A stretch of 63,513 nt of DNA, filler included. It is 9 parts of 9 records of this genome, joined end to end, with 100 filler letters (N's around TTAATTAATTAA, not from the genome) between each part and the next. Parts side by side here need not be neighbours in the genome. Positions count along the whole stretch, not along the records: positions 26,904 to 33,427 come from SRR31156797_73115; 8 more parts are not named here. One strand, written 5' to 3'. Position numbers and translations under genes: made by a program. Positions 1,722 through 33,427 of the stretch are shown in pieces. Below the pieces are notes generated by a model that did not search any database, was not told the DNA's origin, and worked only from the letters and a program-made list of their open reading frames with translations. Each line of letters begins with the position of its first letter. Position 1 is the first letter of the stretch.

Positions 1722-1733
1722 GGGAACCTTACT

Positions 1734-2489: not shown

Positions 2490-2501
2490 GAGGAGGTAGC
2501 A

Positions 2502-2834
2502 ATGTTACCGACTGTCACGAACAGGGACCGTTCCCGCTGGTATATCGGAATGCGGGTCGGGGTTTTGAAAGGTATTGACGGCGGAGTTGCCCGCCTGATC
2601 GGCTACGGAACCTATAACGGCGTCCGTGTTCCTTCCGGTGTTTTTATTGGTCCTACTGCGGACCTTGTCGCCGAGGGCAGGGCTACCGTGGAAATACTCT
2701 TGGACTCCGGACAGAAAGTTTACGGCTGTGAATGCTGGTGGGAGAGGGAGAATTTTATCCGGGGGATCGTCAAGCAGTGCGATGTTGTGATCCGGGTCGA
2801 TATAGACGAGGAGCGAAAGGCGGCGGTGAGCTGA
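2502..2834 (+). CDS. Phage hypothetical protein
   Basis: 110 aa, GAGGAGG SD, with a distinctive VYGCECWW motif. Confidence 0.7.
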   Translation: MLPTVTNRDRSRWYIGMRVGVLKGIDGGVARLIGYGTYNGVRVPSGVFIGPTADLVAEGRATVEILLDSGQKVYGCECWWERENFIRGIVKQCDVVIRVDIDEERKAAVS

Positions 2835-2836
2835 TA

Positions 2837-5086
2837 ATGGACGATTACCGGGAATTCCTTGACTCGAAAAAGGTTACGGTCGCCGACTCCGGTTTCGAGG
2901 CTAATGCCCTGAACGCCTTTCTGTTCGACTTCCAAAGGCCGATCGTTCGGTGGGCTCTCAGAAAGGGCAGGGCCGCGATATTCGCTGATTGCGGGCTTGG
3001 AAAAACACCGATGCAATTGGAGTGGGCGTATCGTGTTGTAAGATACACGGAAAGGCCTGTCCTTATTCTCGCGCCGCTGGCGGTATCAGGCCAAACGCGA
3101 GACGAGGGAATTAAATTCGGCATACCTGTAAAAATCGTTAAAAGTCAGCCGGATATTGTTCGAGGTATCAATATTACAAATTATGAGCGGTTGCACAAAT
3201 TCGACTGTTCAATATTTGGCGGCATAGTTCTTGATGAAAGTTCCATCCTGAAAAACTTCATGGGAAAAACAAAACAGGCGATCATAAACACTTTTAAAAA
3301 TACGGAATACAAACTCGCATGCACCGCCACGCCCGCGCCCAACGATTACATGGAGCTCGGCAATCATTCAGATTTTTTAAACGTTATGCCGGCAAACGAA
3401 ATGCTGAGCCGCTGGTTTATAAACGATACGATGAGCTTTGGAAAATACCGTCTTAAAGGCCATGCCGCAGCATCTTTCTGGGAATGGATTTCGAGTTGGG
3501 CGGTATGTATCAGTAAGCCGTCTGATATGGGGTATCCTGATGACGGTTTTAATCTTCCGAAATTAAACATAGAAGAAATCATATTACCGGTCGATCACGC
3601 ACAATTGTCTGACGACAAACTTTTCAGATTACCGGCCTTAAATGCAATAGAGCTACATAAAGAAATGCGATTAACAGCGCCTGCAAGGGCGGCGAAAGTC
3701 GCGGAATTGGTTAATTCAAACAAAGAGCCATGGATAGTCTGGTGTAACACGGATTATGAAGCGGACGAGTTAATTAAATTGATTCCTGATGCTGTCGAGG
3801 TCCGTGGAAAAATGTCAGATAATGTTAAAGAAAGCAACCTTAGAGCGTTTGGAAATGGAGAACATAGAACGATCATTACGAAACCGTCTATCGCGGGGAT
3901 GGGCTTAAACTGGCAGCACTGTCGCAACGTCGCATTCGTCGGCCTTAGCTACTCATACGAGCAATTATATCAGGCGTTAAGACGCTCGTGGCGATTCGGA
4001 CAGGAAAACGAAGTCAACGCATATATTGTGCTGGCGGAAACGGAGCAAGTTGTTTTGGATAGCGTTAAAAGAAAGCAGGCTGAACATGAAAGTATTCAAG
4101 CAAATATGTATCGACATAATTTCCAAAAAACGAAAAATGTTTCTCATCAATTAACGGTTGAAAATCCGCATCAAATTGAATCCGGTGATAACTGGACGGT
4201 GATAAATTCGGATTGTATTGAACATGTAAGAACGATTAAAAACAATCTGATCGATTTTACTGTTACGAGCATTCCTTTTTCAAATTTATATATTTATTCG
4301 GACTCAATCCGCGACATGGGTAATTGTAAAAACGATGCGGAGTTTTTCGATCACTTCCTGTATCTCGTGCCTGAAATATGTCGAATCACAAAGCCTGGCC
4401 GGTTAGCCGCTATCCATTGCAAGGATCTCGTCAATTACAAAGGCCGTGACGGTATGGCCGGCCTAAGGGATTTTCCGGGCGATATTATCAGATCGTTCCA
4501 GGCGTCCGGATGGGCATATCACAGTCGCGTGACGGTCTGGAAATGCCCGGTTACGGAAATGACCAGGACGAAAGCCCAGGGGTTGCTCTACAAGCAGCTA
4601 CGTAAAGACTCGGCCTTTTCTCGACAGGGTCTTGCAGAGTATCTGCTTATATTCCGTAAGCCCGGCGACAACGAATCTCCGATCACCCACACAACAGACA
4701 GTTTTCCTCTACCAGACTGGCAAGAATATGCTTCTCCGGTTTGGATGGATATCCGCCAAACGAACGTTTTGAATGTTCAGCAGGCCCGGGAATCGAAAGA
4801 TGAAAAACATATCTGCCCATTGCAGCTCGATTTGATAGAGCGGGCGATCCAGATATGGAGCAATCCGGGCGATATTGTCTTTGATCCGTTCAGCGGAATC
4901 GGTTCGTCCGGCGTCGTGGCGCTAAAAATGAAACGCAGATACTTCGGGATAGAGCTGAAGGAAAGCTATTGGAAGGATTCTGTTCGCCATCTAAGAGCCG
5001 CCGAACGCGCCTGGGAGGACTTACCGTTGTTTGATAACGACCGGGAGGGCGACGAATGCTCATTAACCCAAGAATCGGGAGCGTAG
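2837..5086 (+). CDS. SNF2-like helicase fused to a beta-class N4/N6 DNA methyltransferase
   Basis: Helicase motifs ADCGLGKT, LDES, TATP and QALRRSWRFG. The C-terminal MTase has TSIPF (motif IV variant) before DPFSGIGS (motif I). Start taken at ATG 2837, just after the upstream stop. Confidence 0.88.
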   Translation: MDDYREFLDSKKVTVADSGFEANALNAFLFDFQRPIVRWALRKGRAAIFADCGLGKTPMQLEWAYRVVRYTERPVLILAPLAVSGQTRDEGIKFGIPVKIVKSQPDIVRGINITNYERLHKFDCSIFGGIVLDESSILKNFMGKTKQAIINTFKNTEYKLACTATPAPNDYMELGNHSDFLNVMPANEMLSRWFINDTMSFGKYRLKGHAAASFWEWISSWAVCISKPSDMGYPDDGFNLPKLNIEEIILPVDHAQLSDDKLFRLPALNAIELHKEMRLTAPARAAKVAELVNSNKEPWIVWCNTDYEADELIKLIPDAVEVRGKMSDNVKESNLRAFGNGEHRTIITKPSIAGMGLNWQHCRNVAFVGLSYSYEQLYQALRRSWRFGQENEVNAYIVLAETEQVVLDSVKRKQAEHESIQANMYRHNFQKTKNVSHQLTVENPHQIESGDNWTVINSDCIEHVRTIKNNLIDFTVTSIPFSNLYIYSDSIRDMGNCKNDAEFFDHFLYLVPEICRITKPGRLAAIHCKDLVNYKGRDGMAGLRDFPGDIIRSFQASGWAYHSRVTVWKCPVTEMTRTKAQGLLYKQLRKDSAFSRQGLAEYLLIFRKPGDNESPITHTTDSFPLPDWQEYASPVWMDIRQTNVLNVQQARESKDEKHICPLQLDLIERAIQIWSNPGDIVFDPFSGIGSSGVVALKMKRRYFGIELKESYWKDSVRHLRAAERAWEDLPLFDNDREGDECSLTQESGA

Positions 5087-7989: not shown

Positions 7990-8946
7990 CTTCTGGATGC
8001 AGTTGGTGGTCATCAGGATGGCACCGGGGAATTGATCGAACTCGCCCGCCTGACGCATCCAGGCGCCGCCGTAATTGCCAACCAGATGCGCATACTTCTT
8101 CAGTTCCGGATAGCCATGCGCCGGCAGCATCTCGCCGTGGGTATAGACGTTGATGCCTTTGCCTTCGGTCTGGATCAAAAGCTTTTCCAAATCCTTCAGG
8201 TCGTGGCCCGAAACCAGGATCGCCTTGCCCGGTTTGTGACCCATCAGCACCGGTGTCGGCGCCGGCGTGCCATAAGCGCCGGTGTTGGCGGCGTCCAACA
8301 GCGCCAGCACCTGCACCGAAACCTCGCCGCATTTGAGATTCATGGCCAAAAGCTCGTCGACGGTCGGTTCGGCGACGGTCAGAAAATCGAGCGCCTCGTT
8401 GAAATAGGCGTAAATGTCCGGATTTTCCTGCCCCAGAATGGCGGCATGGGTGGCGTAGGCTGCCGCCCCCTTGAGGCCGTAGACCAGAAGCTCCTGCAAG
8501 CCGGTGATGTCCGTGCCCAGCGTATTGATGCGCTCAAGAATACCGACCGTCTTGCCTTGTGCGATCAGCCCCTCGGTGCCTTCCGCCGGCACCCAGGTGG
8601 CGGGGCCGAAAACGGTTTCCGGCGCCCTGCCGGCTTCATGGCAGGCGGCTTCGTACATGGCCTTCGCCTTGTCGCGCATCCGGGCGGCATCGGCCAGCAA
8701 TCCGGCCAGGCGCTCGGCATCGAAGTTGACGTTGGTCACCGTCGTGAATAGGGCTTCGGCGACGAACCGGTCGATATGAATGTCGCGGCCGCCGACAAGT
8801 GCGGCGCGATGGGCGTATTGGGCGATGCCCTTGGCGGCGTGAACCAAAAGATCCTGCAGCACCGCCACTTCGTCCGTCTTGCCGCAAACGCCGATATCGG
8901 TGCAGCCGGTTCCGTGGGCGGTTTGTTCGCATTGATAGCAAAACAC
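7990..8946 (-). CDS. hcp: Hydroxylamine reductase (hybrid-cluster protein), 3'-truncated
   Basis: N-terminal MFCYQCEQTA-GTGC-GVCGK cluster motif, plus ILVSGHDL, YTHGEMLPAHGYP and TTNC. GTG start with a GGAG SD. Confidence 0.96.
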
Positions 8947-9130: not shown

Positions 9131-10408
9131 CTATCGGCGCAAGACCGCCACCAGTTCGACATGCCCCGACCAGGGAAACTGATCGACCGGCGTGACGGTC
9201 TCAAGCCCATATCCGCCGTCGACCAAAATCCGCGCATCGCGTGCGAATGTCGCCGGATTGCACGACACCGCCACCACCGTTTTGGGCCCGGCGTTCGCCA
9301 GGGCTTCGGCCTGCGCCCGCGCGCCGGCCCGCGGCGGATCGAAGACGACCGCGTCGAAGCGGGCCAGTTCGGCCTCCACCAGCGGCCGCTGATAAAGATC
9401 GCGCGCCTCCGCCTGCACCCGGCCGGTTGCCGCCAGGGCGGAAATCAGACCGGCGTCACCGTCGGCGGCATAGACTTGGCGGCCCGGGAACAGGCGCAGC
9501 GCAAAAGTGCCGAGGCCGCAGAACAGATCGGCGACGCGCGCGCCTTCTTCGATGGTTTTCACAACCCTGTCCGCAATCGCCGCCTCGCCCTCGGCGCTCG
9601 GCTGCAGGAAAGCGCCCGGCGGCGGCGAAACCGTAACGCCTCCGATATTCAGGATCGCGCCGCCGAAGGTGGCGACGGGTTCGATCCGCCCGTCGTGACG
9701 CCAGCCAAGGCGCATCCGCCCGGCCTCGCGGCCGAAGGCGCCCAGGGTCTCGATCGCGGTCAGGTCCGGTACGCCCGGCAGGTCGATAAAAACATCGGCG
9801 CCTTCGTCCAACCGTGTCACCCAGATATCGCCGGTGGTATCGGGCGGCGTGATTTCCGCCAGCAAAGCCCGGAAACCGTCAATCAGGGAAAACAGCGACG
9901 AATCCAGGAGCGGGCATTCGGCGAGATCGACGATGGCTTCGCTGCCGCGCGCGTTGAAACCGATGACGGCGCCGCGCTTGCGGGTTCTGTATGCGAAGGT
10001 TGCGCGCCGGCGGCTGCCCGGCGGGATGGAGACCGTTTCGGCCACCGGCTCATCGCCCAGTCCCCGCTTGGCCAAGGCTTCGACGATGCGATCCCGCTTC
10101 CAGCGTGCAGCCGACCCGGCCGCCAAATGCTGGGTGGCGCAACCGCCGCAGTTGCCGAAGTGGCGGCAGGCGGGTGTTATCCGTTCCGCTGCCGGTTCCA
10201 GGATTTCCAGCAACCGCGCGAAAGCGCCGTCCCGCGTTTGGCGCGTCACCTCGGCCCGCACCCGCTCGCCGGGCAGGACAAAGGGCACGAACAGGGGCTT
10301 GCCATGCCACAGACCGACGCCGTCGCCCTGGGCGCCGAGGCGCTCGATGATGGCTTCGATGATTTCGGTTTGTTGCGTCTTTCGGCGCCGCGGCGATCGT
10401 TTGTTCAT
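9131..10408 (-). CDS. rlmD: 23S rRNA (uracil-C5)-methyltransferase, RlmD/TrmA family
   Basis: TRAM-like N-terminus, CRHFGNCGGC Fe-S motif, DLFCGLG, DPPRAG, VSCNP and HVE. Confidence 0.88.
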   Translation of the reverse strand: MNKRSPRRRKTQQTEIIEAIIERLGAQGDGVGLWHGKPLFVPFVLPGERVRAEVTRQTRDGAFARLLEILEPAAERITPACRHFGNCGGCATQHLAAGSAARWKRDRIVEALAKRGLGDEPVAETVSIPPGSRRRATFAYRTRKRGAVIGFNARGSEAIVDLAECPLLDSSLFSLIDGFRALLAEITPPDTTGDIWVTRLDEGADVFIDLPGVPDLTAIETLGAFGREAGRMRLGWRHDGRIEPVATFGGAILNIGGVTVSPPPGAFLQPSAEGEAAIADRVVKTIEEGARVADLFCGLGTFALRLFPGRQVYAADGDAGLISALAATGRVQAEARDLYQRPLVEAELARFDAVVFDPPRAGARAQAEALANAGPKTVVAVSCNPATFARDARILVDGGYGLETVTPVDQFPWSGHVELVAVLRR

Positions 10409-10449
10409 TCTGCTACTATAGGCGCAAAGGCGATGAATGGGAGGCAGGC

Positions 10450-10965
10450 ATGACGATCGATGTGTACCGCGAGGTCGGCAAGAACCGCTACCGCGAGGAT
10501 TTCGGGTTTTATTACGAAGACTTCGTCGAAGGCACCATCATCGAGCACCGCCCGGGACGGACGCTGACCAACACCGATAATTTCTGGTTCACGCTGCTGA
10601 CCAACAACCCCTCGCAGGTTCATTTCGACGCCCATTACGCCGCCCAGACCGAATGGAAGGAGCCGCTGGTCGACAGCACCCTGACATTCGCCATCGTCAC
10701 CGGCATGTCGGTCAATACGGTCAGCAAGCATGTCGTCGCCAACCTGGGCTGGGACGAGGTGCGTCTGACCAAGCCGGTGTTCGCCGGCGACACCATCTAT
10801 GCCGAAAGCGAGATCCTCTCCAAACGGGAATCGAAAAGCCGACCCGATCAGGGCATCGTCACGGTCGAAACCCGCGGCATCAAACAGACCGCCGAGGTCT
10901 TCATGACCTTCAAGCGCACGGTCCTGGTCTATAAACGCGGCCACGGCCCCAACTACGACATCTGA
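10450..10965 (+). CDS. MaoC-family dehydratase
   Basis: YYEDF-G...GRTLT-TDN...NPSQVHFDAHYA...NLGWDEVRLTKPVFAGDT hot-dog fold motifs. Confidence 0.9.
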   Translation: MTIDVYREVGKNRYREDFGFYYEDFVEGTIIEHRPGRTLTNTDNFWFTLLTNNPSQVHFDAHYAAQTEWKEPLVDSTLTFAIVTGMSVNTVSKHVVANLGWDEVRLTKPVFAGDTIYAESEILSKRESKSRPDQGIVTVETRGIKQTAEVFMTFKRTVLVYKRGHGPNYDI

Positions 10966-10988
10966 AGCGACGTTTACAACTGCTACTG

Positions 10989-12152
10989 CTATTCCTGCCA
11001 GCCGAAACGTTCGGCCATGGCGTCGGGAATGGCCCGCCACATGGCCGCCTTCTGATCCTCGGAAAAAGCCCGGCGCCATTCCTCGGGATCGGCCTTCCTG
11101 AAATGCATGGCGCCTTTCGATCTTTCTTTCAGGCGGCTCCAGTCGGCGGCCTCGGCACAGCCGAAGAATTCCAGGATCTCGCGAACCGTGCCGGCATTAT
11201 CGCGCCGGAAATCGGCGTATTCGCCGAACCGGATGTCGATCGGCAGATCGCTCTCGTCGGCCTTGATCCATTCGTCGATCCAGGTCACGCAGTTGGGGAC
11301 GAATACCCGGGCGTTCCAATCGATGCGCTGCTCGCGGGAAAGTCCGTCGTATTCCTTGGGCCGGGCCGCCGTGCTTCGGATGCCCGCCGTTTCCTGGTCG
11401 TGGAACTGCGACAGGGCGGCCTGCCGGGGATCGCGTACATGCAGATAGATGCGCCTAACCCCATGCCTGACCAGGACATCCAGGTTCTCCGGGCTGGCGT
11501 CCAGATGCTCCTGGGTGATGCAGCCGCCGCGGGCGGCGAAGGCGACCGCCCGTTCGATGATCAGGTCGCGCGGGAACAGGCTCAGCGAGATGCGCTGGCG
11601 CGGCACACCGAGCATGCTGGCCATGTTGAAATAGAGAAAGATGCTGCCCGACTTCGGCAAGGTGTTGAGGAAGACGAACGGCAATCCCCGCGCCAGGGCG
11701 TTTTCCTTCATCCGGCGGTTGCCGGGCCCCGGAAATCGGTCGGCGGCATAGGCATCGTTGTACATGGCAACCAGTTGCCCCCCCATGCCCCGGCGCAGGA
11801 AGGCCGCCTCGAACAGATCGTGACCCGGCACCACGAATCCCTTGGCCAGACAATGCCGGTCGACGACGTCGAGCGCCGTCCGATCGTCGCCATGGGCGGC
11901 GATGTCGTCGGCAATCAGCCCGGCGATGGCAGGCGGCACGATGCCCTTGTCGAGAACCGCCAGATAACCGGCGGTTCCCCGGTCGGCATCGCCGGACAGC
12001 ATGGCGCAACGCGCAGCGACGAACCGGGCCAGGGGATTTTCCGGGTCTTCGGCCAGCGCCGTCTCGGCCCAGGCGGACTGTTCGCCGACGGCGTCGGCGA
12101 AAGCATCCGAAAAACACCGGCCGAACAGGACGTCCAATTCGCTGTCGCTCAT
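10989..12152 (-). CDS. Sulfotransferase-domain protein with helical (TPR-like) N-terminus
   Basis: 5'-PSB loop TLPKSGS, 3'-PB VRDPRQAALS and C-terminal HFRKADPEEW. Confidence 0.8.
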   Translation of the reverse strand: MSDSELDVLFGRCFSDAFADAVGEQSAWAETALAEDPENPLARFVAARCAMLSGDADRGTAGYLAVLDKGIVPPAIAGLIADDIAAHGDDRTALDVVDRHCLAKGFVVPGHDLFEAAFLRRGMGGQLVAMYNDAYAADRFPGPGNRRMKENALARGLPFVFLNTLPKSGSIFLYFNMASMLGVPRQRISLSLFPRDLIIERAVAFAARGGCITQEHLDASPENLDVLVRHGVRRIYLHVRDPRQAALSQFHDQETAGIRSTAARPKEYDGLSREQRIDWNARVFVPNCVTWIDEWIKADESDLPIDIRFGEYADFRRDNAGTVREILEFFGCAEAADWSRLKERSKGAMHFRKADPEEWRRAFSEDQKAAMWRAIPDAMAERFGWQE

Positions 12153-12460
12153 ACCGATTACCCCGTTCCCTGGCACACCCGCGATATCCGGGCAAACGGC
12201 CTGGAAATGGCTTAGAGCATTTTCCGGCTGGATGGAATCGAATCTGACAGCTCCGGGCGAGGTGGTCCGCCAGACACCCGGCGCAACCGCATTCGAAACG
12301 CTTGCCGGACCGGTTCGGACTTTTCACGGAATCGAAAGGATTTGCGGTTCAGATTGACGCTTTTCGCCTGCCGCCCGATATATGATAGAGATCGGATAGC
12401 CGAAGACGCGCGGATTTCAGGGCCTTGCACGGCAGCGGCCCTGCCGATGGGAACCTAGAC

Positions 12461-13795
12461 ATGACCTCGACCGCCGCCTTGACCGACACCGGACCTGACA
12501 CGCGGGAAGACCTGGACGGTTTTCTCGCCACCGCCGGAAATCGGGCGGCACGTCTGCGCTGGTTGATGGATCTGCTGATCGAAGAGGGCAACCGCCTCAA
12601 GTCCGAACTCGCCTTCGCCGATTCGGCGGCCGAGGACCTGCCGCGGCTGGCCGGACATTTCGCCCGGGGCATCTCGCTCGAAGGCTGGACGGACGAAGAA
12701 GTCATGGACCTGGTCCGTTTCCGGTTGAACGCGATCGTAAACGGCATCCGATCGATCGGCGATCTGTCGAAGAACCCCGGAGCTTTTCCGCTGTGGGGAG
12801 AAACCCGTCGCTCCCTTCTGTGGCAGGGACTGCATGAACGGGCCCAATTCTTCTACGACGTCGGCTTGGCGCTCTACGATTGGATGCCGCCGCCGGACCG
12901 GGTCACCATCTATCTGACCAGCCGCTGCAACCTGGCCTGCAAACACTGCAACCAGGTCGCCGACAACGACACCGGCCTGTTCGATGAAATCCGCTCTCGG
13001 CCCGAGGATTTCACCCGCGATGAAGTCTTCACCATGTTCGAGAAATCGGAGATTCTCAGACATACCCGCGTCGGCTTTTCCGGCGGCGAGGTGTTCCTTC
13101 GCAAGGATCTTGCCGAGATTCTGTCCGGCCTGGCCCGCATGGGCGTGCGCTTTTCCATGCTGACCAACGGCACCTATACGCGAAAACTGAAAGAGCTGAT
13201 TGCCGATCCGGACGTCCGCAAGGGGCTCGAATTCATCAACTTCTCCCTGGACGGTATCGGCGACGCCCACGAGGCGATCCGCGGCAAGGGGACCTACGCC
13301 CTGCTGGAACGTTCGCTGGGCATCACCCGCGACGCCGGCGTGCCGGGATCGGCTCTGGCCGTCGCCCAGGCGACCAACCTGGAAACCATTCGCGACCTCA
13401 AGGACCATGTCGCGGCCAATCCCGGCGACTTCCCGGAGTTCAGAATTCAACTGGAATTCCTCGATGCCGAATACTGGCAGGCCAACCGGCGCTTCCTCCG
13501 GCCTTTGCTGGGGCCGTTACTGCCCGAGGACTACTACCTGTCTCTCGATCCGGCCCTCAACCGCAGCGGTTTGGCCTGCCCCGCCGGATCGGCCTTTTGC
13601 CGGATCGATCCGGACACGCGCGTCAAGGCCTGCGGCTACGATTTCGTGGCCGGAGAACCGGTCGACCTTGTCATGGGATATGTACGCGACCATGGCTTCA
13701 ACTTCGACGATCTGTGGAATTCGGAACGGGCCGTCGGCGTACGCCGACGGGTCAAAACCTGCGTCGGCTGCGGGGCCACCTGCATCCGCAAGTGA
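12461..13795 (+). CDS. Radical SAM protein with SPASM/twitch-like C-terminal Cys motif
   Basis: CNLACKHC, SGGE and TNG motifs. C-terminal CPAG..C....C...CVGCGATC. About 140-aa N-terminal extension. Confidence 0.88.
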   Translation: MTSTAALTDTGPDTREDLDGFLATAGNRAARLRWLMDLLIEEGNRLKSELAFADSAAEDLPRLAGHFARGISLEGWTDEEVMDLVRFRLNAIVNGIRSIGDLSKNPGAFPLWGETRRSLLWQGLHERAQFFYDVGLALYDWMPPPDRVTIYLTSRCNLACKHCNQVADNDTGLFDEIRSRPEDFTRDEVFTMFEKSEILRHTRVGFSGGEVFLRKDLAEILSGLARMGVRFSMLTNGTYTRKLKELIADPDVRKGLEFINFSLDGIGDAHEAIRGKGTYALLERSLGITRDAGVPGSALAVAQATNLETIRDLKDHVAANPGDFPEFRIQLEFLDAEYWQANRRFLRPLLGPLLPEDYYLSLDPALNRSGLACPAGSAFCRIDPDTRVKACGYDFVAGEPVDLVMGYVRDHGFNFDDLWNSERAVGVRRRVKTCVGCGATCIRK

Positions 13796-13874
13796 AAACC
13801 CGGTTTCCGTCGACCCGAAAGGCTGGCCGAAACCGAATGCAAAAACCGACGATCCTTAACGGGGAGGAGGACCC

Positions 13875-14180
13875 ATGTTCATCATCGCCGCCACCTTTAA
13901 AATCAAAGCCGACAGCATCGGCACCTTCAAGGAACTGATCGATTGGCAGGCCGAACGGTCCGTCGCCGAAGAAGACGGCTGTTTACAGTTCGACGTCAGC
14001 CAGGATGAAGAAGACCCGGCGACCTTCCTGTTGTACGAGGTCTATGCCGACGCCGCCGCCTTCGACGACCACCACATCGTCATCCCGCGCTTTCAGGAAT
14101 TCCTCGCCAAGGCCGAGGCCATGAACGCGGCAGAACCCGTGGTCAAACGCATGACCCGGATCTTCGCCAACCAAAAATAG
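13875..14180 (+). CDS. Antibiotic biosynthesis monooxygenase (putative quinol monooxygenase) family
   Basis: EDGCLQFDV...FLLYEVYADAAAFDDH motif. GGAGGAGG SD. Confidence 0.88.
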   Translation: MFIIAATFKIKADSIGTFKELIDWQAERSVAEEDGCLQFDVSQDEEDPATFLLYEVYADAAAFDDHHIVIPRFQEFLAKAEAMNAAEPVVKRMTRIFANQK

Positions 14181-14207
14181 CCGCGACTCTCCGCAAACGC
14201 CGCAGCG

Positions 14208-15263
14208 TCATTCCGCCGCTTGCTGCCCGCCTGTGGCTGAGTTCAAAGCCGCGCGCACGGAACCGAATTTCTTGCGATAGGCTGCCGGCGTCATGCCGAC
14301 CTTGCGCTTGAACAGACGCCTGAAAAAGCTGCCGTCCTCGTAGCCGACGTCGCCGGCCACCGCCTCGACCGGCAGATCGGTCGTTTCCAGGACCTGCTTG
14401 GCCTCTTCCAGGCGCATCGTATGCACGTATTCCAAGGGTGGCATGCCGGTCGACTTGGCAAATCGCCGCTTGAAGGACCGTTCGGCCAGGCCGCTGCGCG
14501 CCGCCATGGCGGCGACCGGATTCGGTTCGGCGTAATGATCGGCGATCCAGGCCTGGCAATCGGCGATCAGGCGATCCTCGACCTGGCGGGCCGAGGCCAG
14601 CATGGAAAAGGGCTGCTGGCCCTGGTCGTGCCAGTCCATCAGATACAGGCGCGACAGCCGCATGCCCTCATCGGTACCGAAGAATCTGGCCATTAGGTAC
14701 AGCGCCAGGTCCTGCCACGAGGTGCCGCCGCCCGAGGTAACGATACGCTGGCCTTCGCCGGAGGCGACCAGGACGCGGGACGGATGAACCCGCACCTTCG
14801 GGTATCGGTCGCTCAACGCCTGGCAATAGCCCCAATGGGTGGTGGCATCGCCGCCGTCCAATAGTCCCGATTCGGCCAGCAGCAAAGCGCCGGAACAAAC
14901 CGAGGCGACGGTGGCGCCATTCGCGTAACAGGCACGAAGCCAGTCTTCCTCGGGACCGTAGCGGCCGCGGATGTCCTCATGGGGGGCAAGCAGGATTTCC
15001 GGCACGCAGACGACGTCTGGGACCGGGCAGCCGGCAAGGGCCGCGTTGGGCCTGATCCAGGCTCCGTTGGCGGCGGCGAACGGCTCCGTATTCCGGGCCA
15101 CCACCATCGCCCGGGCCAATCCTTTGCCGGGTACGCCGGTGGTCAGGAAATCCCAGTCCCGGCCGGCCGAATGGATCAGGTCGTAGATCCCGTAGATGGT
15201 CGACGCCGTCGTCTCCGGCACGGCCAGAAGGGCGACGGTAAAGCTGTCGTTTTGTCCGCGCAT
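14208..15263 (-). CDS. GlxA-family transcriptional regulator (DJ-1/PfpI + AraC HTH)
   Basis: ASVCSGALLLAESGLLDG-ATTHW, then AraC HTH VGYEDGSFFRRLFKRKVGMTPAAYR. Confidence 0.92.
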   Translation of the reverse strand: MRGQNDSFTVALLAVPETTASTIYGIYDLIHSAGRDWDFLTTGVPGKGLARAMVVARNTEPFAAANGAWIRPNAALAGCPVPDVVCVPEILLAPHEDIRGRYGPEEDWLRACYANGATVASVCSGALLLAESGLLDGGDATTHWGYCQALSDRYPKVRVHPSRVLVASGEGQRIVTSGGGTSWQDLALYLMARFFGTDEGMRLSRLYLMDWHDQGQQPFSMLASARQVEDRLIADCQAWIADHYAEPNPVAAMAARSGLAERSFKRRFAKSTGMPPLEYVHTMRLEEAKQVLETTDLPVEAVAGDVGYEDGSFFRRLFKRKVGMTPAAYRKKFGSVRAALNSATGGQQAAE

Positions 15264-26903: not shown

Positions 26904-27716
26904 AATTCAGAATACAAAAAATCGGAAGAGCTAAGGACCCTCTACGGTTCCCATCATAAAGCGTTCGCGTTTGCTGCTGAAATCCATGATAAATCTAATT
27001 TCCTGGAAGCCGAATCGGAAAAAAGAAAAGATCTGCTTGTTCATTTTGCTCTTGGCCTTTTTAGTAGGCGAAAACCATACAAAAAGATGCCAAAGGAGCT
27101 TCAAAGAGATATAAAACATTTTTTTAATAAATATACCGATGTAATTCAGGAATCCAAAGATCTTCTTTTCTCTGTTGGCAATACTGAAACGATAAAAGCA
27201 GAATGCCAAAAAGCCCAGAAAAAATTGAAAACCGGCAGAATAGATGGGGATCACTCCTGGACATTGCACATTGATTTCATCAACCAACTATCACCGATCC
27301 TTCGGACATATATCGGCTGTGCCACACAACTCTATGGGGACTTGTGCGAAGTGGATTTAATCAAAATCCATATGCAGTCAAATAAAGTCTCCCTGATGAA
27401 ATATGATGATTTTGAGGGTAAACCTCTGCCCCTTCTCATGGAGAGGATTAAAATCAACCTAAGAGAACAGAGAATTGACTTTTATACCTATGGAGACCAA
27501 TTCAAGCCGCAACCCTTGTACCTAAAATCACACTATATCGAAGACGATTTTCCCAATTATCAGTCCCAGATCGCTTTCGATGAAAAACTATCGACCTTTG
27601 AATGGCTTGACCTCAGAGGTTTTGGACTGACCATAGATGAATTTGAGGCGCATCTTTCAGATCTGAACATAATCATTGATGGCTTTACGATTCATACTTT
27701 AAGGTCATCCTCTTAA
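26904..27716 (+). CDS. DNA phosphorothioation-associated putative methyltransferase (TIGR04096-like), C-terminal part
   Basis: Frame open from the contig edge: DLLVHFALGLFSRRKPY...YIGCATQLYGDL..VDLIKIH..SNKVSLMKYDDFEGKPLP...RIKINLREQ. The family was recognised from memory, and the MTase domain itself lies outside the window. Confidence 0.7.
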   Translation, partial: NSEYKKSEELRTLYGSHHKAFAFAAEIHDKSNFLEAESEKRKDLLVHFALGLFSRRKPYKKMPKELQRDIKHFFNKYTDVIQESKDLLFSVGNTETIKAECQKAQKKLKTGRIDGDHSWTLHIDFINQLSPILRTYIGCATQLYGDLCEVDLIKIHMQSNKVSLMKYDDFEGKPLPLLMERIKINLREQRIDFYTYGDQFKPQPLYLKSHYIEDDFPNYQSQIAFDEKLSTFEWLDLRGFGLTIDEFEAHLSDLNIIIDGFTIHTLRSSS

Positions 27717-27837
27717 TACATTGCCTGGGTTTGGCCTTTGGATGTGCTTGTTTGCGTACAAAATATGACTTTTTTCTATAAAAACCAGGGAAATCCCGAT
27801 TGACTTCATCGGCTGAGTATAATATTTTCCTCCTCTT

Positions 27838-27869
27838 TGCAGAAAAAACTTTACATAGTTTTTTCTGCA
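27838..27869. promoter_or_regulatory. Perfect 13-bp inverted repeat, candidate WYL-regulator operator
   Basis: TGCAGAAAAAACT-ttacat-AGTTTTTTCTGCA, about 70 bp upstream of the WYL gene in an AT-rich promoter region. Confidence 0.7.
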
Positions 27870-27940
27870 TGATTTTATGCATATAGTTTTTATACGGGTA
27901 TATTTTTTTTTGCTACTGATTGGAGCGGGCGTATAATTAG

Positions 27941-28777
27941 ATGAAGTGGGGCTTGAAACAGCGCTTGAACTTTATAGAGTTTCGACTCTTTTGGGAAGAA
28001 TCGATTAATAGAAAAGATTTGATTGATACCTTTGGCGTATCTGTTCCTCAAGCTTCTGCTGATATAAAAGCATATAGAAAGCAGGCCCCGAACAACGTCT
28101 ATTATGACAAAAGCAAAAAACAGTATTCAATTACTTCGAAATTTGAACCGGTTTTTGGCCCCATTGATGCCCATAGCTATTTGTCTAAACTCTCTATGTA
28201 TTCCGATGGGATTTTGTCAGAAGACGATTTGAAAATGGGGTATATCCCGGAATTTTCAATTGTCCCATCTTTGGACCGTGCCATTGATGCTGTCGTGTTA
28301 AGAAAGGTTATTCGGGCATTAAAAAAGAAAAAAGCCATTTACATTCAGTATCAATCCATGAGTCGGCCGGAACCTATCTTGCGGTGGGTGTCCCCCCATG
28401 CCTTTGCATTTGACGGATTTAGATGGCATGTCCGGGGATATTGCGAGTTGGCGCAAGACTTCAGGGATTTTATTCTGGGCAGGATCCTTGATGCCCGTAA
28501 TGTGAAAAATGCGACTAATAAGGCGGCTAATGATTTGAAGTGGAACCGCATTGTGACCATTAAAATTGCTGCGCACCCGGATTTAACGCCGGGACAGCGT
28601 AAGGTCATTGAAAAGGAATACAATATGAAAAACGGCATGTCCCAGGTTACGGTCAGAGCCGCTTTTGTATACTATTTTTTATTGTGGTTTCGATTAGATA
28701 TTCCTAAAAGCTCAGGTTCGTTTCAAAATACACAGGCTGTAGTTCTGAACTATGATGAGATTGAGGCATACATATAA
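27941..28777 (+). CDS. WYL-domain transcriptional regulator, CapW/BrxR-like
   Basis: wHTH QRLNFIEFRLFWE..INRKDL..FGVSVPQASAD, WYL core YQSMS...SPHAFAFDGFRWHVRGYC...FRDFILGRI and a C-terminal VRAAFVYY segment. Confidence 0.9.
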   Translation: MKWGLKQRLNFIEFRLFWEESINRKDLIDTFGVSVPQASADIKAYRKQAPNNVYYDKSKKQYSITSKFEPVFGPIDAHSYLSKLSMYSDGILSEDDLKMGYIPEFSIVPSLDRAIDAVVLRKVIRALKKKKAIYIQYQSMSRPEPILRWVSPHAFAFDGFRWHVRGYCELAQDFRDFILGRILDARNVKNATNKAANDLKWNRIVTIKIAAHPDLTPGQRKVIEKEYNMKNGMSQVTVRAAFVYYFLLWFRLDIPKSSGSFQNTQAVVLNYDEIEAYI

Positions 28778-28780
28778 TAA

Positions 28781-29713
28781 ATGGAAACACGTTTAGAAAA
28801 ATATTCAAAAGGGTCTGCCGGGAGGCATGAAACCTTCGTCCTTAGATACGGATGGCTGACAAAAGGGTACGTAAATTGTATAGAAGATCCTGGTGTGTTT
28901 AAGGGCGATAAGGGTGTTGTTGCACTTGGTGTCGGCAAAAATATGGTACGCTCCATCCGGTTCTGGTGCATATTTTTGGGGCTTCTCAGGGTTGCTGAAA
29001 AAGGGAATTTGATACCTACAGAACTTGGGGAAAAGCTGATAGGCAAAAAACTGCCTGGAACCAATAAAATGGACTGGAAATCGGGGTGGGACCCTTATCT
29101 TGAAGACGAGGCCAGTCTCTGGCTGCTGCACTGGCAGATTTTTATCCATCCGGAAATAGCTGTCTCCTGGCCCCTGGTTTTTAATTTTTCAGCACTTCAA
29201 ACCTTCTCGCAAAAGGAACTGGGTGCAGGAATTATAAAAGTGGCATCCGATGATGAGCGGTTGAATAAGCTTTCGCCAAATTCATATATGAAGGATGCTG
29301 CCTGCATTCTTCATATGTACCGGCCCCCGGCCGACAAAGATGGTGAGATCCATTGTCCCTTTAATTCCCTTGGGATAATGGAAAGGACCCAGGAAAAGGG
29401 TCAGTTTCGGTTTTCCGTTAAAGAACGCCTTAACCTGCCGGCGTTGATTTTTCTTGCGGCTTGTTTTTCATTTATTGAGTCCTCGGACATATCCGGTAAA
29501 ACGGTCAAATTGAGCACCATTGCCTATGACAATGATTCGCCGGGAGTGGCGTTTAAGCTTTCGGAAACTGAATGCGGCAAGCTTCTCAATCAGGCGGTAG
29601 CTTATTTTGAAGATCTGCATTTTATAGAATCCACCGGCACCTGGCAATTGCATTTTAAAGAGGCCCCCGGGGATTGGTATTGGAAATGCCTGGCAGCATA
29701 TTATGGAGAGTAG
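28781..29713 (+). CDS. DUF4007 family protein (SspB-like)
   Basis: HETFVLRYGWLTKG...LGVGKNMVRSIRFW...WDPYLED.ASLWLLHW, the DUF4007 signature. Confidence 0.88.
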   Translation: METRLEKYSKGSAGRHETFVLRYGWLTKGYVNCIEDPGVFKGDKGVVALGVGKNMVRSIRFWCIFLGLLRVAEKGNLIPTELGEKLIGKKLPGTNKMDWKSGWDPYLEDEASLWLLHWQIFIHPEIAVSWPLVFNFSALQTFSQKELGAGIIKVASDDERLNKLSPNSYMKDAACILHMYRPPADKDGEIHCPFNSLGIMERTQEKGQFRFSVKERLNLPALIFLAACFSFIESSDISGKTVKLSTIAYDNDSPGVAFKLSETECGKLLNQAVAYFEDLHFIESTGTWQLHFKEAPGDWYWKCLAAYYGE

Positions 29714-29716
29714 GCT

Positions 29717-32700
29717 GTGTACTTAAGCAAGTTTATACATATAGATAATAAAATAGCCCGTTCTGTTAACCTGGAGCGGGATGCGTCAAATATCGGCCAG
29801 ATCCGGCAATTCCAGATCACCCGTATGGCCCGGCAGGTTATAGAGGGGTTTGTGGACGCCTTAGAAGGAGATCCGGAATCCGCATGGTCGTTGACCGGGC
29901 CCTATGGCACCGGGAAATCCTCTTTTTGTAATTTTCTATTTGCATTATGTAGCGGGCCCAATGCTGCAATGAAAAAGGCGGCCTTTGAGAAGCTTGAAAA
30001 GCGGGATGCAAATCTGTTTCAAAGGTTTACCGCTGCCAGGAAAAAGGTTGGCGGAAAAAAAGGCTTTCTCCAACTTCGGGCAGTATCCAGGTATGAATCG
30101 CTAAACAACACCCTTATAAGGGGGCTTGAAGAGGCGTTGGCAGGTTATCACGGCGATGGGGCCGCCGCCTTGCTGGCCACTATCAGAGAGATCAAAAAAG
30201 CGCCTGTTGTTTTAACTTCGGATATCCATGACCTATTGATTCGGGCTGCCGAGGTGACCGGAAAGAAATTGTTGATTGTCATTGATGAGTTCGGCAAAAA
30301 CCTGGAATTTATGTCCCACAATCCATCGTCGGGGGATATCTTTATTTTACAGGCATTGGCGGAGAGCAGCTTTGCGTATCTGTGGGTCTGTCTCCACCAG
30401 GCGTTCAGTGATTATGCATCAGGGTTGTCCATGGTGCAGCGCAATGAGTGGCAAAAGGTCCAGGGCCGGTTTAAAGACATCTCGTACCTTGAGCCACCCT
30501 CCCATGTCATTGGGTTGATTTTAAGGGCCGTCAGGCATAATTTTAAGGCAGCGGGTGATATTCAGCCGGCCCTGGCACAATGGGCCAAAGTCCAGACGGA
30601 TTTGATGGCTGATGTAAATATAAAGGGGGTGCCCGGCATGGTCCTGGAAAAGATAACGCGGTTGTACCCGTTTTCCCCCCTTTCAGCAGTGGTGCTCGGG
30701 GAATTGAGCCACCGGTTCGCCCAGAACGACAGAACCATATTTTCCTTTTTGTCCGGCAATGCCCAAAAATCATTTTCGGGCTTTCTTTCAGGGCACAATG
30801 TAAAAAAAGAACAGCCCTTACCTTGCCTGAGCCTGGACTGGCTTTACGATTATTTTTGCGAAATAACCACCCAGGTATATGGAGACCGGTCGGCCACCCA
30901 ACGGTGGATTGAGATCCAATCCCTGATTACCGACCATGAAAGCGGCCCGGAGGATGAGCTAAAACTGTTGAAGACCATTGGCGTTCTGAATCTTTTAAGT
31001 AAGGTGCCGGGTATTAAAGCCTCCCTGCCAATGATCGAATCCGCCATGGGGGCCGGTTACAATGGGGAAAGAAAAAAGATTCGTAAAGCCCTGAACCGCC
31101 TGGTGGATAAAAAAGTGGTCCTTTACCGTGATTATGCCGATGAGTACCGGCTCTGGGAGGGAACAGATTTTGACATTGAAAATGCGGTAAGGGAAGAACG
31201 GGCCAGGTTATCCCTGGGCACCCTGGAACATATGCTGCAAATCGCTGCGCCCCTGCCCAGGGTGATTGCTGCCCGGCATTCTTTTCAGACCGGTGCCGTC
31301 CGGGAATTCAAACAAACCTGGACCTCCCTGGATCTAATGGCGGAGCGCGGGGATAAAGAACTGGTTCCCTGCAAGAGTGCCGACGGTCAGATATGGCTGG
31401 TTATCGGAAAGGAAGATTTTCCCGAGGACCTGGCTGCAACAACCAAAGATAAGCCTGTGATTATCGGCTATGCCCCCTGTGAGTCCCAGGTGGTGGAATT
31501 GGCATTGGATGCGGCCGCAGCAAAAAAGGTGTTTCAGTCCCATACCCAGCTTTCCAGGGATGGGGTCGCACGCAGGGAAGCCCGCTTCCGTGCCGATGCC
31601 GCCGAAGCTGCCCTGAACCGCTATTTGACAGACCTGGTTGCACCGGCAAGCGGGAAGATGAAATGGTTTGCCTGCGGCAATCCCGTTGATATGGTGAAGC
31701 GCCGCGGGGGGATATCATCCCTGGTGTCCAAGGTTTGCGATGGAATATATAGTAAATGCCCCAGGGTTCATATGGAGATGATCAACCATAACCGGCTGAC
31801 ATCGGCCGGTGCCCGAGCCCAGCGGATGTTAATGGAAGCTATGGTTACCAGCGAATCCCAAGAGGATTTGGGTCTTGAAGGGTTTGGACCGGAAAAAGCC
31901 ATTTACCTGGCCATGTTTTCATCCACCGGCCTCCATGGATTTGATGAAGAAAAAAATATCTGGCAGCTCAAGTCCCCTGATCCCAAAAATGAGGCCCATG
32001 CCCGATTGGCCATGGTGTGGGAGACATTGGACCGGGTACTGAAGGAGGCCGAAGAGCAGGACAAAGGGGTTTCCCTTGCCGATTTGATTCACATTCTTCA
32101 GGCACCGCCCTATGGGTTGAGAAAAGGGCCGATCTCTATTTTCCTCTGCCATTATATCCTGGTCAATAATGACAGGGTGGCCCTTTACCAGGAAGGGGCA
32201 TTCCAACCCTTTTTCGGTGGGGCTGAAGCCGCTTTGATGGTGAAACGGCCGGAGCTTTTCCAGTTGCGGCGGTATTCCTTGGAAGGGGGGCACAGGGATG
32301 TGGTCCAGGCATATATGCGGGTGTTTGATACAGGAGTACTTGAATTTGATGAAACTGCTCGTAATCAGTCCCTGCTGAAAATTATCGGTCCCCTGGTGGA
32401 ATTTATGGAGGCCCTGCCGGAGTATTCCCTGTACACGAGGGAAATCTCCCAAGGTGCCCAGAGGCTGCGCAGCATGGTACTCCACTCCAGGGAGCCCTTG
32501 ACCCTATTATTTAACGATATACCCAAAGCCCTAGGGCTGCCGGTGTTGACCCCCGGGGAAAAGGATTCCAGTTGTAAAATAGACCTGCATTCAAAATTGC
32601 ACGGTGCCCTGATGGAACTGGCCGATGCCTTTAAGGCGCTGAATGATGCAGTAAAATGCTCCATACAGGAATCGTTTGGTTTGGATGATGGGCTAACCTT

Positions 32701-33157
32701 CAACCAATTCAGACAGGAATTTCAGCAGCGCATCGCCCCCCTTGAAAAGCCTTGCGGAGATAAGGCGTTGAAAACAGTGTTAAAGACCATGCTCAACAGC
32801 CGCCACGATGATGACCGCTGGGCTGCGGGCATTGCAGGGGTGATCATGAAAAAACCCCTGGATGCTTGGCGGGATAATGATGTAGCCCCCTGGTACGTGG
32901 GAATTCAGGATATTGCAGATCGAATTCTTGCATTTGAAACCCTGGTGAAAGATCGTGGGAACACCAAAGATAAAAACCGGACCAGTTTCAGTTTAACCCG
33001 GGTAAACGGCAGGACGGAGTCGCTTATCGTTAACATATCCGAGGAACAAAAAAAGAAGCTACGTGAACAATATCCCGATCTTGAAACGCTGAATGACGAG
33101 GACAAGAAATCCCTTTGTGCGCTTTTGTTGGAAGAATTGGGTAAAGATGATGAATAG
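29717..33157 (+). CDS. Large P-loop ATPase (SspC-like)
   Basis: RSVNLERD, Walker A GPYGTGKS, Walker B VIDEFGK, EWQKVQGRF, AQNDRTIFSFL and PPYGLRKG. 1146 aa, located between DUF4007 and the PAPS reductase. Confidence 0.85.
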   Translation: MYLSKFIHIDNKIARSVNLERDASNIGQIRQFQITRMARQVIEGFVDALEGDPESAWSLTGPYGTGKSSFCNFLFALCSGPNAAMKKAAFEKLEKRDANLFQRFTAARKKVGGKKGFLQLRAVSRYESLNNTLIRGLEEALAGYHGDGAAALLATIREIKKAPVVLTSDIHDLLIRAAEVTGKKLLIVIDEFGKNLEFMSHNPSSGDIFILQALAESSFAYLWVCLHQAFSDYASGLSMVQRNEWQKVQGRFKDISYLEPPSHVIGLILRAVRHNFKAAGDIQPALAQWAKVQTDLMADVNIKGVPGMVLEKITRLYPFSPLSAVVLGELSHRFAQNDRTIFSFLSGNAQKSFSGFLSGHNVKKEQPLPCLSLDWLYDYFCEITTQVYGDRSATQRWIEIQSLITDHESGPEDELKLLKTIGVLNLLSKVPGIKASLPMIESAMGAGYNGERKKIRKALNRLVDKKVVLYRDYADEYRLWEGTDFDIENAVREERARLSLGTLEHMLQIAAPLPRVIAARHSFQTGAVREFKQTWTSLDLMAERGDKELVPCKSADGQIWLVIGKEDFPEDLAATTKDKPVIIGYAPCESQVVELALDAAAAKKVFQSHTQLSRDGVARREARFRADAAEAALNRYLTDLVAPASGKMKWFACGNPVDMVKRRGGISSLVSKVCDGIYSKCPRVHMEMINHNRLTSAGARAQRMLMEAMVTSESQEDLGLEGFGPEKAIYLAMFSSTGLHGFDEEKNIWQLKSPDPKNEAHARLAMVWETLDRVLKEAEEQDKGVSLADLIHILQAPPYGLRKGPISIFLCHYILVNNDRVALYQEGAFQPFFGGAEAALMVKRPELFQLRRYSLEGGHRDVVQAYMRVFDTGVLEFDETARNQSLLKIIGPLVEFMEALPEYSLYTREISQGAQRLRSMVLHSREPLTLLFNDIPKALGLPVLTPGEKDSSCKIDLHSKLHGALMELADAFKALNDAVKCSIQESFGLDDGLTFNQFRQEFQQRIAPLEKPCGDKALKTVLKTMLNSRHDDDRWAAGIAGVIMKKPLDAWRDNDVAPWYVGIQDIADRILAFETLVKDRGNTKDKNRTSFSLTRVNGRTESLIVNISEEQKKKLREQYPDLETLNDEDKKSLCALLLEELGKDDE

Positions 33158-33427
33158 TAAAAAAGAGAGGCATATTTTAGCGTTGTCGGGAGGGAAAGAT
33201 AGCGCCGCCCTCGCGGTTTATATGCGGGAGAAATATTCTGATCTGCCTTTGGAATATGTATTTACTGACAGTGGACATGAACTCCCTGAAACATATGAAT
33301 ATCTTGAAACGCTTCGGGCTAAGTTAAATATAGATATTATTACTGTTAAGCCAAAAAAGAATTTTGAATATTGGCTTAAGTATTTTAACGGGGTTTTGCC
33401 GTCTGCTAACAATCGTTGGTGTACAAG
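33147..33427 (+). CDS. PAPS-reductase-family protein (SspD/DndC-like), 3'-truncated
   Basis: PP-loop LSGGKDS, FTDSGHELPETYEYL and LPSANNRWCT. Overlaps the ATPase stop. Confidence 0.88.

Follow-up and report, generated by a model that had tools for sequence, protein, structure and literature searches.

Gene content of the contig

We analysed a 63.5-kb stretch of DNA (the window) that consists of nine contigs, with spacers of N with TTAATTAATTAA between them, and we focus here on the one metagenomic contig that fills positions 26904-33427 (6.5 kb), where a gene for a WYL-domain regulator stands at the head of sspB, sspC and sspD, the modification genes of an Ssp-type DNA phosphorothioation (PT) system. 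The contig contains five genes, all on the + strand and tightly packed, and both of its ends cut genes (Table 1). The first of them, the 3' part of a gene of the NCBIfam family TIGR04096, lies 224 nt ahead of the WYL gene; the WYL gene and sspB are 3 nt apart, as are sspB and sspC, and sspC overlaps sspD by 11 nt. None of the five reading frames has an internal stop, and the assignments draw on profile E-values that, for tightly packed co-oriented genes, are far beyond chance. An earlier note on this DNA had listed a TIGR04096-like C-terminus, a WYL gene, a DUF4007 gene, an ATPase of 1146 aa and a 3'-phosphoadenosine-5'-phosphosulfate (PAPS) reductase family gene, co-oriented and with the last three of these spacings, and our coordinates and profile matches agree with it in every detail.

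Table 1. Genes and control-region features of the contig, in coordinates of the window.
Feature	Coordinates	Strand	Evidence or description
TIGR04096 gene, C-terminal 270 codons	26904..27716	+	Frame open from the contig's first base; NCBIfam TIGR04096
AT-rich intergenic control region, 224 nt	27717..27940	+	Promoter-like sites, inverted repeat, conserved block
Promoter-like site	27800-27828	+	Promoter-like scan
Perfect 13-nt inverted repeat, 6-nt spacer	27838-27869	+	Hairpin; candidate operator, also terminator-like
Block shared with orthologous loci	27870-27894	+	18 of 25 columns invariant across the window, G238 and G278
Second promoter-like site	27910-27937	+	Promoter-like scan
WYL regulator, 278 aa, first cistron	27941..28777	+	Pfam WYL E 1.4e-12; CapW/BrxR full-length homology
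sspB, DUF4007, 310 aa	28781..29713	+	Pfam DUF4007 E 3.3e-71, full length; PADLOC SspB E 9.4e-80
sspC, P-loop ATPase, 1146 aa, GTG start	29717..33157	+	PADLOC SspC E 1e-296
sspD, PAPS-reductase/PP-loop enzyme, first 93 codons, cut by contig end	33147..33427	+	PAPS_reduct E 1.1e-10; PADLOC SspD E 1.3e-37

An Ssp-type modification module

SspB, SspC and SspD form a set homologous to the DUF4007, BrxC and BrxP proteins of type 4 bacteriophage exclusion (BREX), according to the available passages of PMC12839542, and the two systems have to be told apart by the finer fit of their members. On the contig, the ATPase is matched by the PADLOC model of SspC with 985 bits over positions 2-1099 of 1104, compared with 391 bits (E 3.3e-117) for the best BrxC model, and its motifs are intact, with a Walker A GPYGTGKS at residues 61-68 and a Walker-B-like LLIVIDEF. 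The start of the last gene fits SspD far better than BrxP (E 1.8e-9), the BrxP match beginning only at position 131 of a 779-position model. Its PP-loop, SGGKDS, occupies residues 14-19, near the start of the protein as in SspD orthologues of 264-276 aa, and the long BrxP-type PAPS reductase (about 780-810 aa) that characterizes BREX type 4 is not what this gene encodes. By its profile matches, the module has the characters of SspBCD and lacks the BrxP of BREX type 4; the Ssp-type core proposed in the earlier note is borne out, and its ATPase fits SspC rather than BrxC.

A close relative of the regulator does raise the question of whether the cargo behind the WYL head might be a BREX type 4-like set, with PglZ and BrxL rather than SspFGH, and the SspC really a BrxC. 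In the genome G278, a WYL protein 64% identical to that of the contig heads a locus with a DUF4007 fragment, BrxP, BrxC, PglZ and BrxL, the contig ATPase also matches one BrxC model, and the two sets are homologous (PMC12839542, in part). We nevertheless regard this reading as extremely unlikely: the SspC models are far ahead, the PP-loop gene begins at the PP-loop like a short SspD, and neither PglZ nor BrxL was found in the syntenic operon of the genome G238, described below.

The earlier note also had the WYL gene standing where sspA usually sits. There is no fixed position for sspA, which is often missing, IscS being able to serve in its place (Wang et al., 2021; PMC8092258, in the passages available), and which on one plasmid is divergent from sspBCD.

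A regulator of the CapW/BrxR family

The Pfam scan of the protein encoded by the first cistron reports a WYL domain only. Comparison with proteins of solved structure (phmmer) gives matches along its length to CapW of S. maltophilia, 7tb6 (E 1.1e-58, residues 2-275 versus 10-284), CapW 9c5g (E 2e-55, 3-255 versus 10-260), the WYL domain-containing protein 7tb5 (E 8.3e-54, 2-275 versus 21-294), BrxR 7t8k (E 3e-38, 7-259 versus 13-264) and BrxR 7qfz (E 6.4e-32, 5-260 versus 14-265). As judged from its sequence, the protein is a member of the CapW/BrxR family, with a winged helix-turn-helix (wHTH), a WYL and a WCX domain, and the full-length matches to 7tb6, 7t8k and 7qfz uphold the CapW/BrxR-type assignment made before.

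The nearest relatives of the contig are found in Desulfobacteria genomes and metagenome-assembled genomes (MAGs). We searched 401 Desulfobacteria genomes, a sample of the class to which one ssp-bearing Desulfobacterium MAG (L001) belongs, and a second sample of 401 genomes of the phylum. WYL homologues at E<=1e-20 occur in 18 of the 401 Desulfobacteria genomes, the two best (G238 and G278) each being 64% identical to the contig's protein and 74% to each other. The next four matches in this sample (40-44%) stand with an E1-E2-like gene and candidate systems, with ZacA/ZacB, with a cyclase/E2/SAVED-HNH set of a cyclic-oligonucleotide-based antiphage signalling system (CBASS), and with AbiEi/AbiEii. 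The phylum sample holds four matches of 38-46% and none above 46% identity. Homologues are also present in 694 records of a plasmid collection; three contexts there, at 42-46% identity, are a UvrD/PD-(D/E)XK pair, a CBASS-like nucleotidyltransferase/ThiF/MPN set and a RecB-like/SbcCD-like set. CapW itself is typically divergent from CBASS.

That relatives of 40-46% identity lie beside defence loci agrees with the published behaviour of the BrxR family, in which 164 of 347 homologues have a known defence system downstream (Picton et al., 2022; PMC9122601, in the part available). In that part, the main text makes no mention of Ssp or Dnd, and 'SspC' occurs once, within a list of query proteins, in one supplementary file that may be incomplete. 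A literature search that covered passages of the most relevant papers found no description of a WYL regulator for Ssp.

The control region upstream of the regulator gene

Within the 224 nt that precede the WYL gene, the inverted repeat spans 72-103 nt upstream of the WYL ATG and begins 10 nt past the first promoter-like site. When the 224-nt region was shuffled 5000 times with its dinucleotide content preserved, one of the shuffled sequences contained a perfect repeat with arms of at least 13 nt and a gap of 3-10 nt. Its geometry fits that of BrxR operators, with similar arms, spacer and distance to the start codon: BrxR of pEFER binds an imperfect 11+5+11-bp repeat that lies between the promoter -10 box and brxR and ends 74 nt before the start codon, and the Acinetobacter BrxR repeat has 10-bp arms and a 5-bp spacer (PMC9122601, relevant passages). 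By this analogy the repeat is a candidate operator. We go no further than this because the hairpin also scores as terminator-like for the upstream gene (-16.9 kcal/mol as RNA, z -6.5), because the repeat is not conserved upstream of the G238 or G278 orthologues, and because promoter-like sites are not enriched in the region (11 found versus 10.3 expected from shuffles). The half-site, TGCAGAAAAAACT, has no other copy in the contig at up to one mismatch.

The repeat might alternatively be only an intrinsic terminator of the TIGR04096 gene, in which case the WYL protein would act elsewhere, or as an activator or sensor, and the operon would not be repressed through this site. This appears to us unlikely. 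The repeat does pass the terminator-like scan, with 13 pairs and then TGATTTTATG, its folding energy is of the kind just given, and it is not kept before the two orthologues whereas the adjoining conserved block is; however, G-C pairs account for only 4 of the 13, the T-tract is weak, the stop codon is 122 nt further upstream, and the arm length, spacer and start-codon distance of the repeat match the published BrxR operators (PMC9122601, as available). One DNA hairpin can, moreover, serve both roles.

Probable continuation of the operon beyond the contig

The earlier note placed the effector genes past the contig edge, and this is what the cut sspD and the relatives of the locus indicate. The most informative relative is G238, a complete Desulfobacteria chromosome, in which ten co-directional genes with gaps or overlaps of at most 42 nt form one operon: the WYL gene (278 aa, 64% identical to its contig counterpart), sspB (310 aa, 78%), sspC (1145 aa, 71%), sspD (276 aa), a 1518-aa fusion of a NERD domain, two protein-kinase domains and an SspF-like C-terminal half, an SspG-like gene (553 aa), an SspH/DndH-like HerA/FtsK gene (about 1760 aa), a second, diverged DUF4007 gene (282 aa, Pfam E 2.7e-7), a distant SspC-like ATPase with weak SspC matches (1433 aa) and a metallophosphoesterase (calcineurin-like phosphoesterase, 271 aa). 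The last three genes occupy 9215-15246 of locus L056 (G238:C1), on the minus strand. Homologues of the second DUF4007 protein and its ATPase also follow SspH in another locus (L028), where they are placed upstream of sspB.

Scanning with SspC gave 25 loci, 6 from genomes and 19 from metagenomes, some of them duplicates of one another. A homologue of the kinase-SspF fusion lies directly 3' of sspD in 11 of the 15 scanned loci that extend at least 2 kb beyond sspD, and in all eight such loci (six of them distinct) whose SspC is at least 40% identical to that of the contig. The fusion is not new in kind, since N-terminal wHTH/NERD/kinase fusions have been described for DndF (Rakesh et al., 2024; PMC10853773, in the passages available). 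By synteny, the contig operon very probably continues beyond sspD as it does in G238.

These counts also bear on the possibility that the WYL-sspBCD genes are a modification-only (orphan) cassette with no restriction partner, which would make PT here a regulated epigenetic mark and not a defence. Neither sspE nor sspFGH was nearby for 2,211 of 2,678 sspBCD clusters (Wang et al., 2021; PMC8092258, in part), the contig stops inside sspD so that nothing downstream is visible, and 4 of the 15 scanned loci carry no SspF homologue at that place. We think an orphan cassette very improbable, however, in that these four are the furthest removed from the contig, with SspC identities of 29-32%, and the eight closer loci, together with G238, have kinase-SspF, SspG and SspH directly after sspD.

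In one ssp lineage (L003, L017 and L018), sspC and sspD flank genes for an 886-aa type IIG-like N6-adenine methylase (N6_Mtase, Eco57I, TaqI_C) and for a protein with a metallo-beta-lactamase fold (L003 13520-16180).

Recurrence of the WYL head

We looked for a CapW/BrxR-type homologue upstream of sspB (tblastn, E<=1e-3) in loci with at least 850 nt of upstream sequence. There was none in the 20 scanned ssp loci of this kind. SspB matches occur at 26 places in 22 of the 401 Desulfobacteria genomes, and 2 of the 22 places with enough upstream sequence have a WYL gene. The locus with the closest SspB and SspC (L012; 87% identity for SspB, 78% for SspC and 89% for its 264-aa SspD) has no WYL head either, an unassigned 221-aa open reading frame (ORF) lying directly upstream of its sspB. 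Because the head is missing in this closest relative and in 20 of 20 scanned loci with enough upstream sequence, it is a dispensable add-on. The WYL-headed Ssp arrangement is thus real and recurrent but rare: of the methyltransferase-WYL-sspBCD order, whose recurrence the earlier note had put forward as a check, the WYL-sspBCD part is found again in G238, and conserved WYL/methyltransferase adjacency, set beforehand as a test, has largely failed.

In L012, a different, 354-aa WCX-domain protein is encoded 3.1 kb upstream of sspB (2748-3812), and the island may therefore have a regulator from a different WYL lineage. In G278 (L049, G278:C1, 6001-18860), the next ORF after the WYL gene (64%) has 140 aa and aligns with no more than the first ~90 SspB positions (57% identical to residues 10-62 of the contig SspB). 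It precedes an unassigned 474-aa gene, BrxP, BrxC, PglZ and BrxL, which make up a BREX type 4 locus; its BrxC is split between two ORFs (987 and 442 aa) with matches to successive parts of a single BrxC model, possibly through a frameshift. From its gene order, this locus looks like an Ssp head whose cargo BREX type 4 replaced. With the same regulator, a leftover sspB fragment and a BREX type 4 set, it would be a concrete trace of cargo swapping between two PT-based defence families.

The close WYL clade has so far been seen only with DUF4007-containing PT systems, in two cases beside the window, which are too few to generalise. A bolder proposal would be that a CapW/BrxR subclade (with members in the window, G238 and G278 that share 64-74% identity, against at most 46% with any others seen) has specialised for DUF4007-containing PT systems. 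Promoter, operator, regulator and DUF4007 gene would then form a portable head with exchanged cargo (SspCD-FGH, or BREX type 4 behind a leftover sspB 5' fragment), PT marking and restriction would be signal-switched rather than constitutive, and TIGR04096 would be a real fourth component on the modification side. Taken as a whole, this proposal is speculative, and we would expect it to fail rather than to hold.

The TIGR04096 gene

The partial gene at the start of the contig matches model positions 219-476 of 478 of TIGR04096 with 226.6 bits (E 5.5e-67, cut-off 150); Pfam and PADLOC gave no match for this fragment. It comprises a helical region and a C-terminal alpha/beta domain, with a mean predicted local-distance difference test score (pLDDT) of 90.9 for the predicted fold, and the S-adenosylmethionine (SAM) methyltransferase core lies before the contig start. 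Foldseek found no match for the fragment in the PDB at E<=0.001. Its best VIA-align hit, to a TetR-type three-helix helix-turn-helix with Z 7.2, covered residues 33-92 only and is below the meaningful level for helical parts; we claim no fold on this basis.

A full-length view comes from the G238 orthologue, a 669-aa protein that is 72% identical to the contig fragment and is predicted (pLDDT 87.8) to consist of an N-terminal alpha/beta domain, a class I SAM-methyltransferase core, a helical region and a C-terminal alpha/beta domain. Foldseek matches to the core are only generic class I SAM methyltransferases, of small molecules and of RNA. The SAM-loop region reads DYGCGKCDD (residues 212-220), with D212, G214, G216 and D220 invariant in 52 sequences over which mean column identity is 59%. 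In five genomes (G207, G238, G118, G343 and G038), the N-terminal ~170 residues match family-model positions about 310-477 (E 1e-27 to 4e-34), which implies that two diverged copies of one alpha/beta domain flank the methyltransferase core; the order of secondary-structure elements in the G238 model agrees with such a duplication. The family numbers at least 6,581 proteins at E<=1e-10 among 7,998 candidates scored, and a literature search for TIGR04096 by name found no paper.

The G238 copy lies at the far 3' end of the island, past the last gene of the operon, convergent to it and about 23 kb from the WYL gene. It is directly preceded, with an 11-nt overlap, by a gene for a 211-aa class I SAM methyltransferase, the two together spanning L056 6234-8868. 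The same pair occurs in L102 (G207:C1) at about 9255-11975, with 80% and 73% identity, and small methyltransferases also occur in L003, where one precedes sspB (8349-8942), and in L024, where one comes after sspD. Only on the contig is TIGR04096 directly upstream of the WYL gene and co-oriented with it. A circular or tandem arrangement as the origin of this adjacency was rejected because the G238 methyltransferase gene is convergent to the operon. On the contig, the TIGR04096 gene is probably a separate transcription unit.

Elsewhere the neighbourhood of the family varies. It is found before dndBCDE on a Pseudoalteromonas megaplasmid and directly after sspD-F-G-H on an Azospirillum plasmid. 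On a Rhodobacteraceae plasmid, a cysteine desulfurase gene immediately precedes it and it is divergent from sspBCD; on two other plasmids it is alone among mobile-element genes, with no PT genes within about 10 kb. Among the 25 scanned loci, four have it beside ssp (L004, L027, L028 and L029). In the remaining Desulfobacteria genomes with the gene, it follows dndBCD (G203), adjoins an ATPase of the second type (G038), has only the small SAM methyltransferase next to it and no ssp or dnd within about 10 kb (G207), or has nothing recognizable in the short contigs on which it lies (G118 and G343). The link of TIGR04096 to PT islands is real, its position is fluid, and the link is already captured in the family name. 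The earlier note had suggested a possible coupling of phosphorothioation with a methyltransferase-like partner; a neighbourhood of PT genes is the known, name-giving property of this family and not a new coupling.

Whether TIGR04096 could be a working component of Ssp, acting for example on PT-marked DNA or in sulfur relay, can be weighed on these contexts. Its place beside ssp in the four scanned loci, directly after sspH in Azospirillum and after the desulfurase gene in the Rhodobacteraceae plasmid would favour such a role, as would its retention in the G238 island, 72% identical despite another position and orientation. Set against this, the family also sits with dndBCDE or without PT genes within about 10 kb, most ssp loci are without it, only one of the six TIGR04096-bearing genomes among the 401 Desulfobacteria also has an SspB match, and on the contig 224 nt containing a hairpin separate the gene from the WYL gene. 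On balance, we find the role doubtful, and the contig adds one more PT-linked context for TIGR04096 and nothing on its mechanism.

A model for the operon

The identities, order and spacing of the genes, the repeat and the synteny with G238 lead us to a reading that we consider likely, namely that the contig carries an autoregulated Ssp PT defence operon of a Desulfobacteria-like organism, of which it holds the 5' half, with restriction genes beyond the contig end. The first cistron would encode a dimeric wHTH-WYL repressor of the CapW/BrxR family that, by analogy with BrxR and CapW, would bind the 13-nt inverted repeat, which follows the operon promoter, and hold the whole transcript at a low level until the WYL domain receives a ligand or stress signal. 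The operon mRNA would supply SspB for DNA binding or nicking, SspC as an ATPase and SspD as a PP-loop enzyme that inserts sulfur, and these proteins, with a cysteine desulfurase acting in trans, would place single-strand PT marks on host DNA. Most probably the operon continues with the NERD/two-kinase-SspF fusion, SspG and a HerA/FtsK-type SspH, a module that would damage unmarked DNA, and the dose of both the marking genes and the self-toxic restriction genes would then be set by one repressor. TIGR04096 would be a recurrent companion of PT islands outside the operon.

Several observations weigh against this reading. Besides the terminator-like character of the repeat, its absence before the orthologues and the unenriched promoter-like sites, they include the lack of a WYL head in the 20 scanned loci and in the closest SspB/SspC relative, the absence of a cysteine desulfurase gene (SspA or IscS) from the 6.5-kb contig, and the fact that the downstream genes are not on the contig, which ends inside sspD.

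The proposed operon is of interest for the question of how Ssp operons stay safe. SspFGH is toxic without PT (PMC8092258, in the part available), so a single repressor for both marking and restriction would be a possible safeguard, and its dosing of both from one transcript is a testable answer. The literature that we searched contained nothing on the regulation of Ssp systems. A WYL head on Ssp is unusual among Ssp loci and a modest variation on a known system; since BrxR-type regulators are already known from many defence systems, the combination is plausible and would not surprise a specialist.

The other contigs of the window

On the other eight contigs, 51 long ORFs were scanned with PADLOC, and none matched a component of an Ssp, Dnd or BREX system. 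The G+C content of the nine contigs ranges from about 40% to 65%, with 40-52% for the Ssp contig and 55-64% for several of its neighbours in the window; the bin may combine DNA of different origins, or the Ssp contig may stem from horizontal transfer. On one of these other contigs, positions 1722-5083 contain a 255-aa ORF resembling a C5-cytosine methylase fragment and a gene for a 784-aa protein with a type II methyltransferase C-terminal part, which together are probably a restriction-modification locus. The segment 34256-36852 holds a 628-aa ORF whose residues ~29-146 weakly match PADLOC PycTIR and a TIR 'Effector' (E 8e-7 to 7e-6). The end of this ORF overlaps by 4 nt the next gene, which encodes a DEDDh exonuclease (PADLOC DEDDh, E 1.7e-32).

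Comparison with known systems

The closest described counterpart is SspBCD-SspFGH of Vibrio anguillarum FF-93 (Wang et al., 2021; PMC8092258, in the passages available). The contig shares with it the order sspB-sspC-sspD, the tight coupling of these genes and the absence of sspA from the cluster, and relatives of the contig have a three-gene SspF/G/H-like module after sspD. Unlike the Vibrio cluster, the contig operon carries a CapW/BrxR-type repressor gene at its front, and its restriction genes are not on the contig. SspF of the relatives also differs, since it is about 1520-1540 aa long, with a NERD nuclease domain at its N-terminus and two protein-kinase domains, and G238 adds the second DUF4007/ATPase pair and the metallophosphoesterase after SspH.

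BREX type 4 resembles the locus in its homologous DUF4007, BrxC/SspC and PAPS reductase proteins, in the brxR-type regulator noted for it and in the G278 locus, which a close WYL relative heads (PMC12914056 and PMC12839542, both in part); passages of the former mention brxR of type 4 as non-essential. In contrast, the contig has a short SspD-type PP-loop enzyme and an ATPase that best fits SspC models, and in G238 the syntenic operon contains SspF/G/H-like genes and neither PglZ nor BrxL.

The TIGR04096 fragment is like other members of NCBIfam TIGR04096 (dnd_rel_methyl, 'DNA phosphorothioation-associated putative methyltransferase') in scoring above the cut-off and in adjoining PT genes. It is unlike them in that only its C-terminal 270 residues are on the contig and that it is co-oriented with, and directly upstream of, a regulator gene, whereas elsewhere the gene stands after sspH, after sspA, before dndB, after dndD/E, or alone.

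With BrxR (E. fergusonii pEFER, 7QFZ; Acinetobacter, 7T8K) and CapW (S. maltophilia, 7TB6), the contig's regulator has in common full-length homology (E 1e-58 to 6e-32), a place at the head of a defence operon and an upstream inverted repeat with similar arms, spacer and distance. It departs from both in its cargo, which is an Ssp PT system, and from CapW in that we take it to be co-transcribed, 3 nt ahead of sspB, rather than divergent from the genes that it would control.

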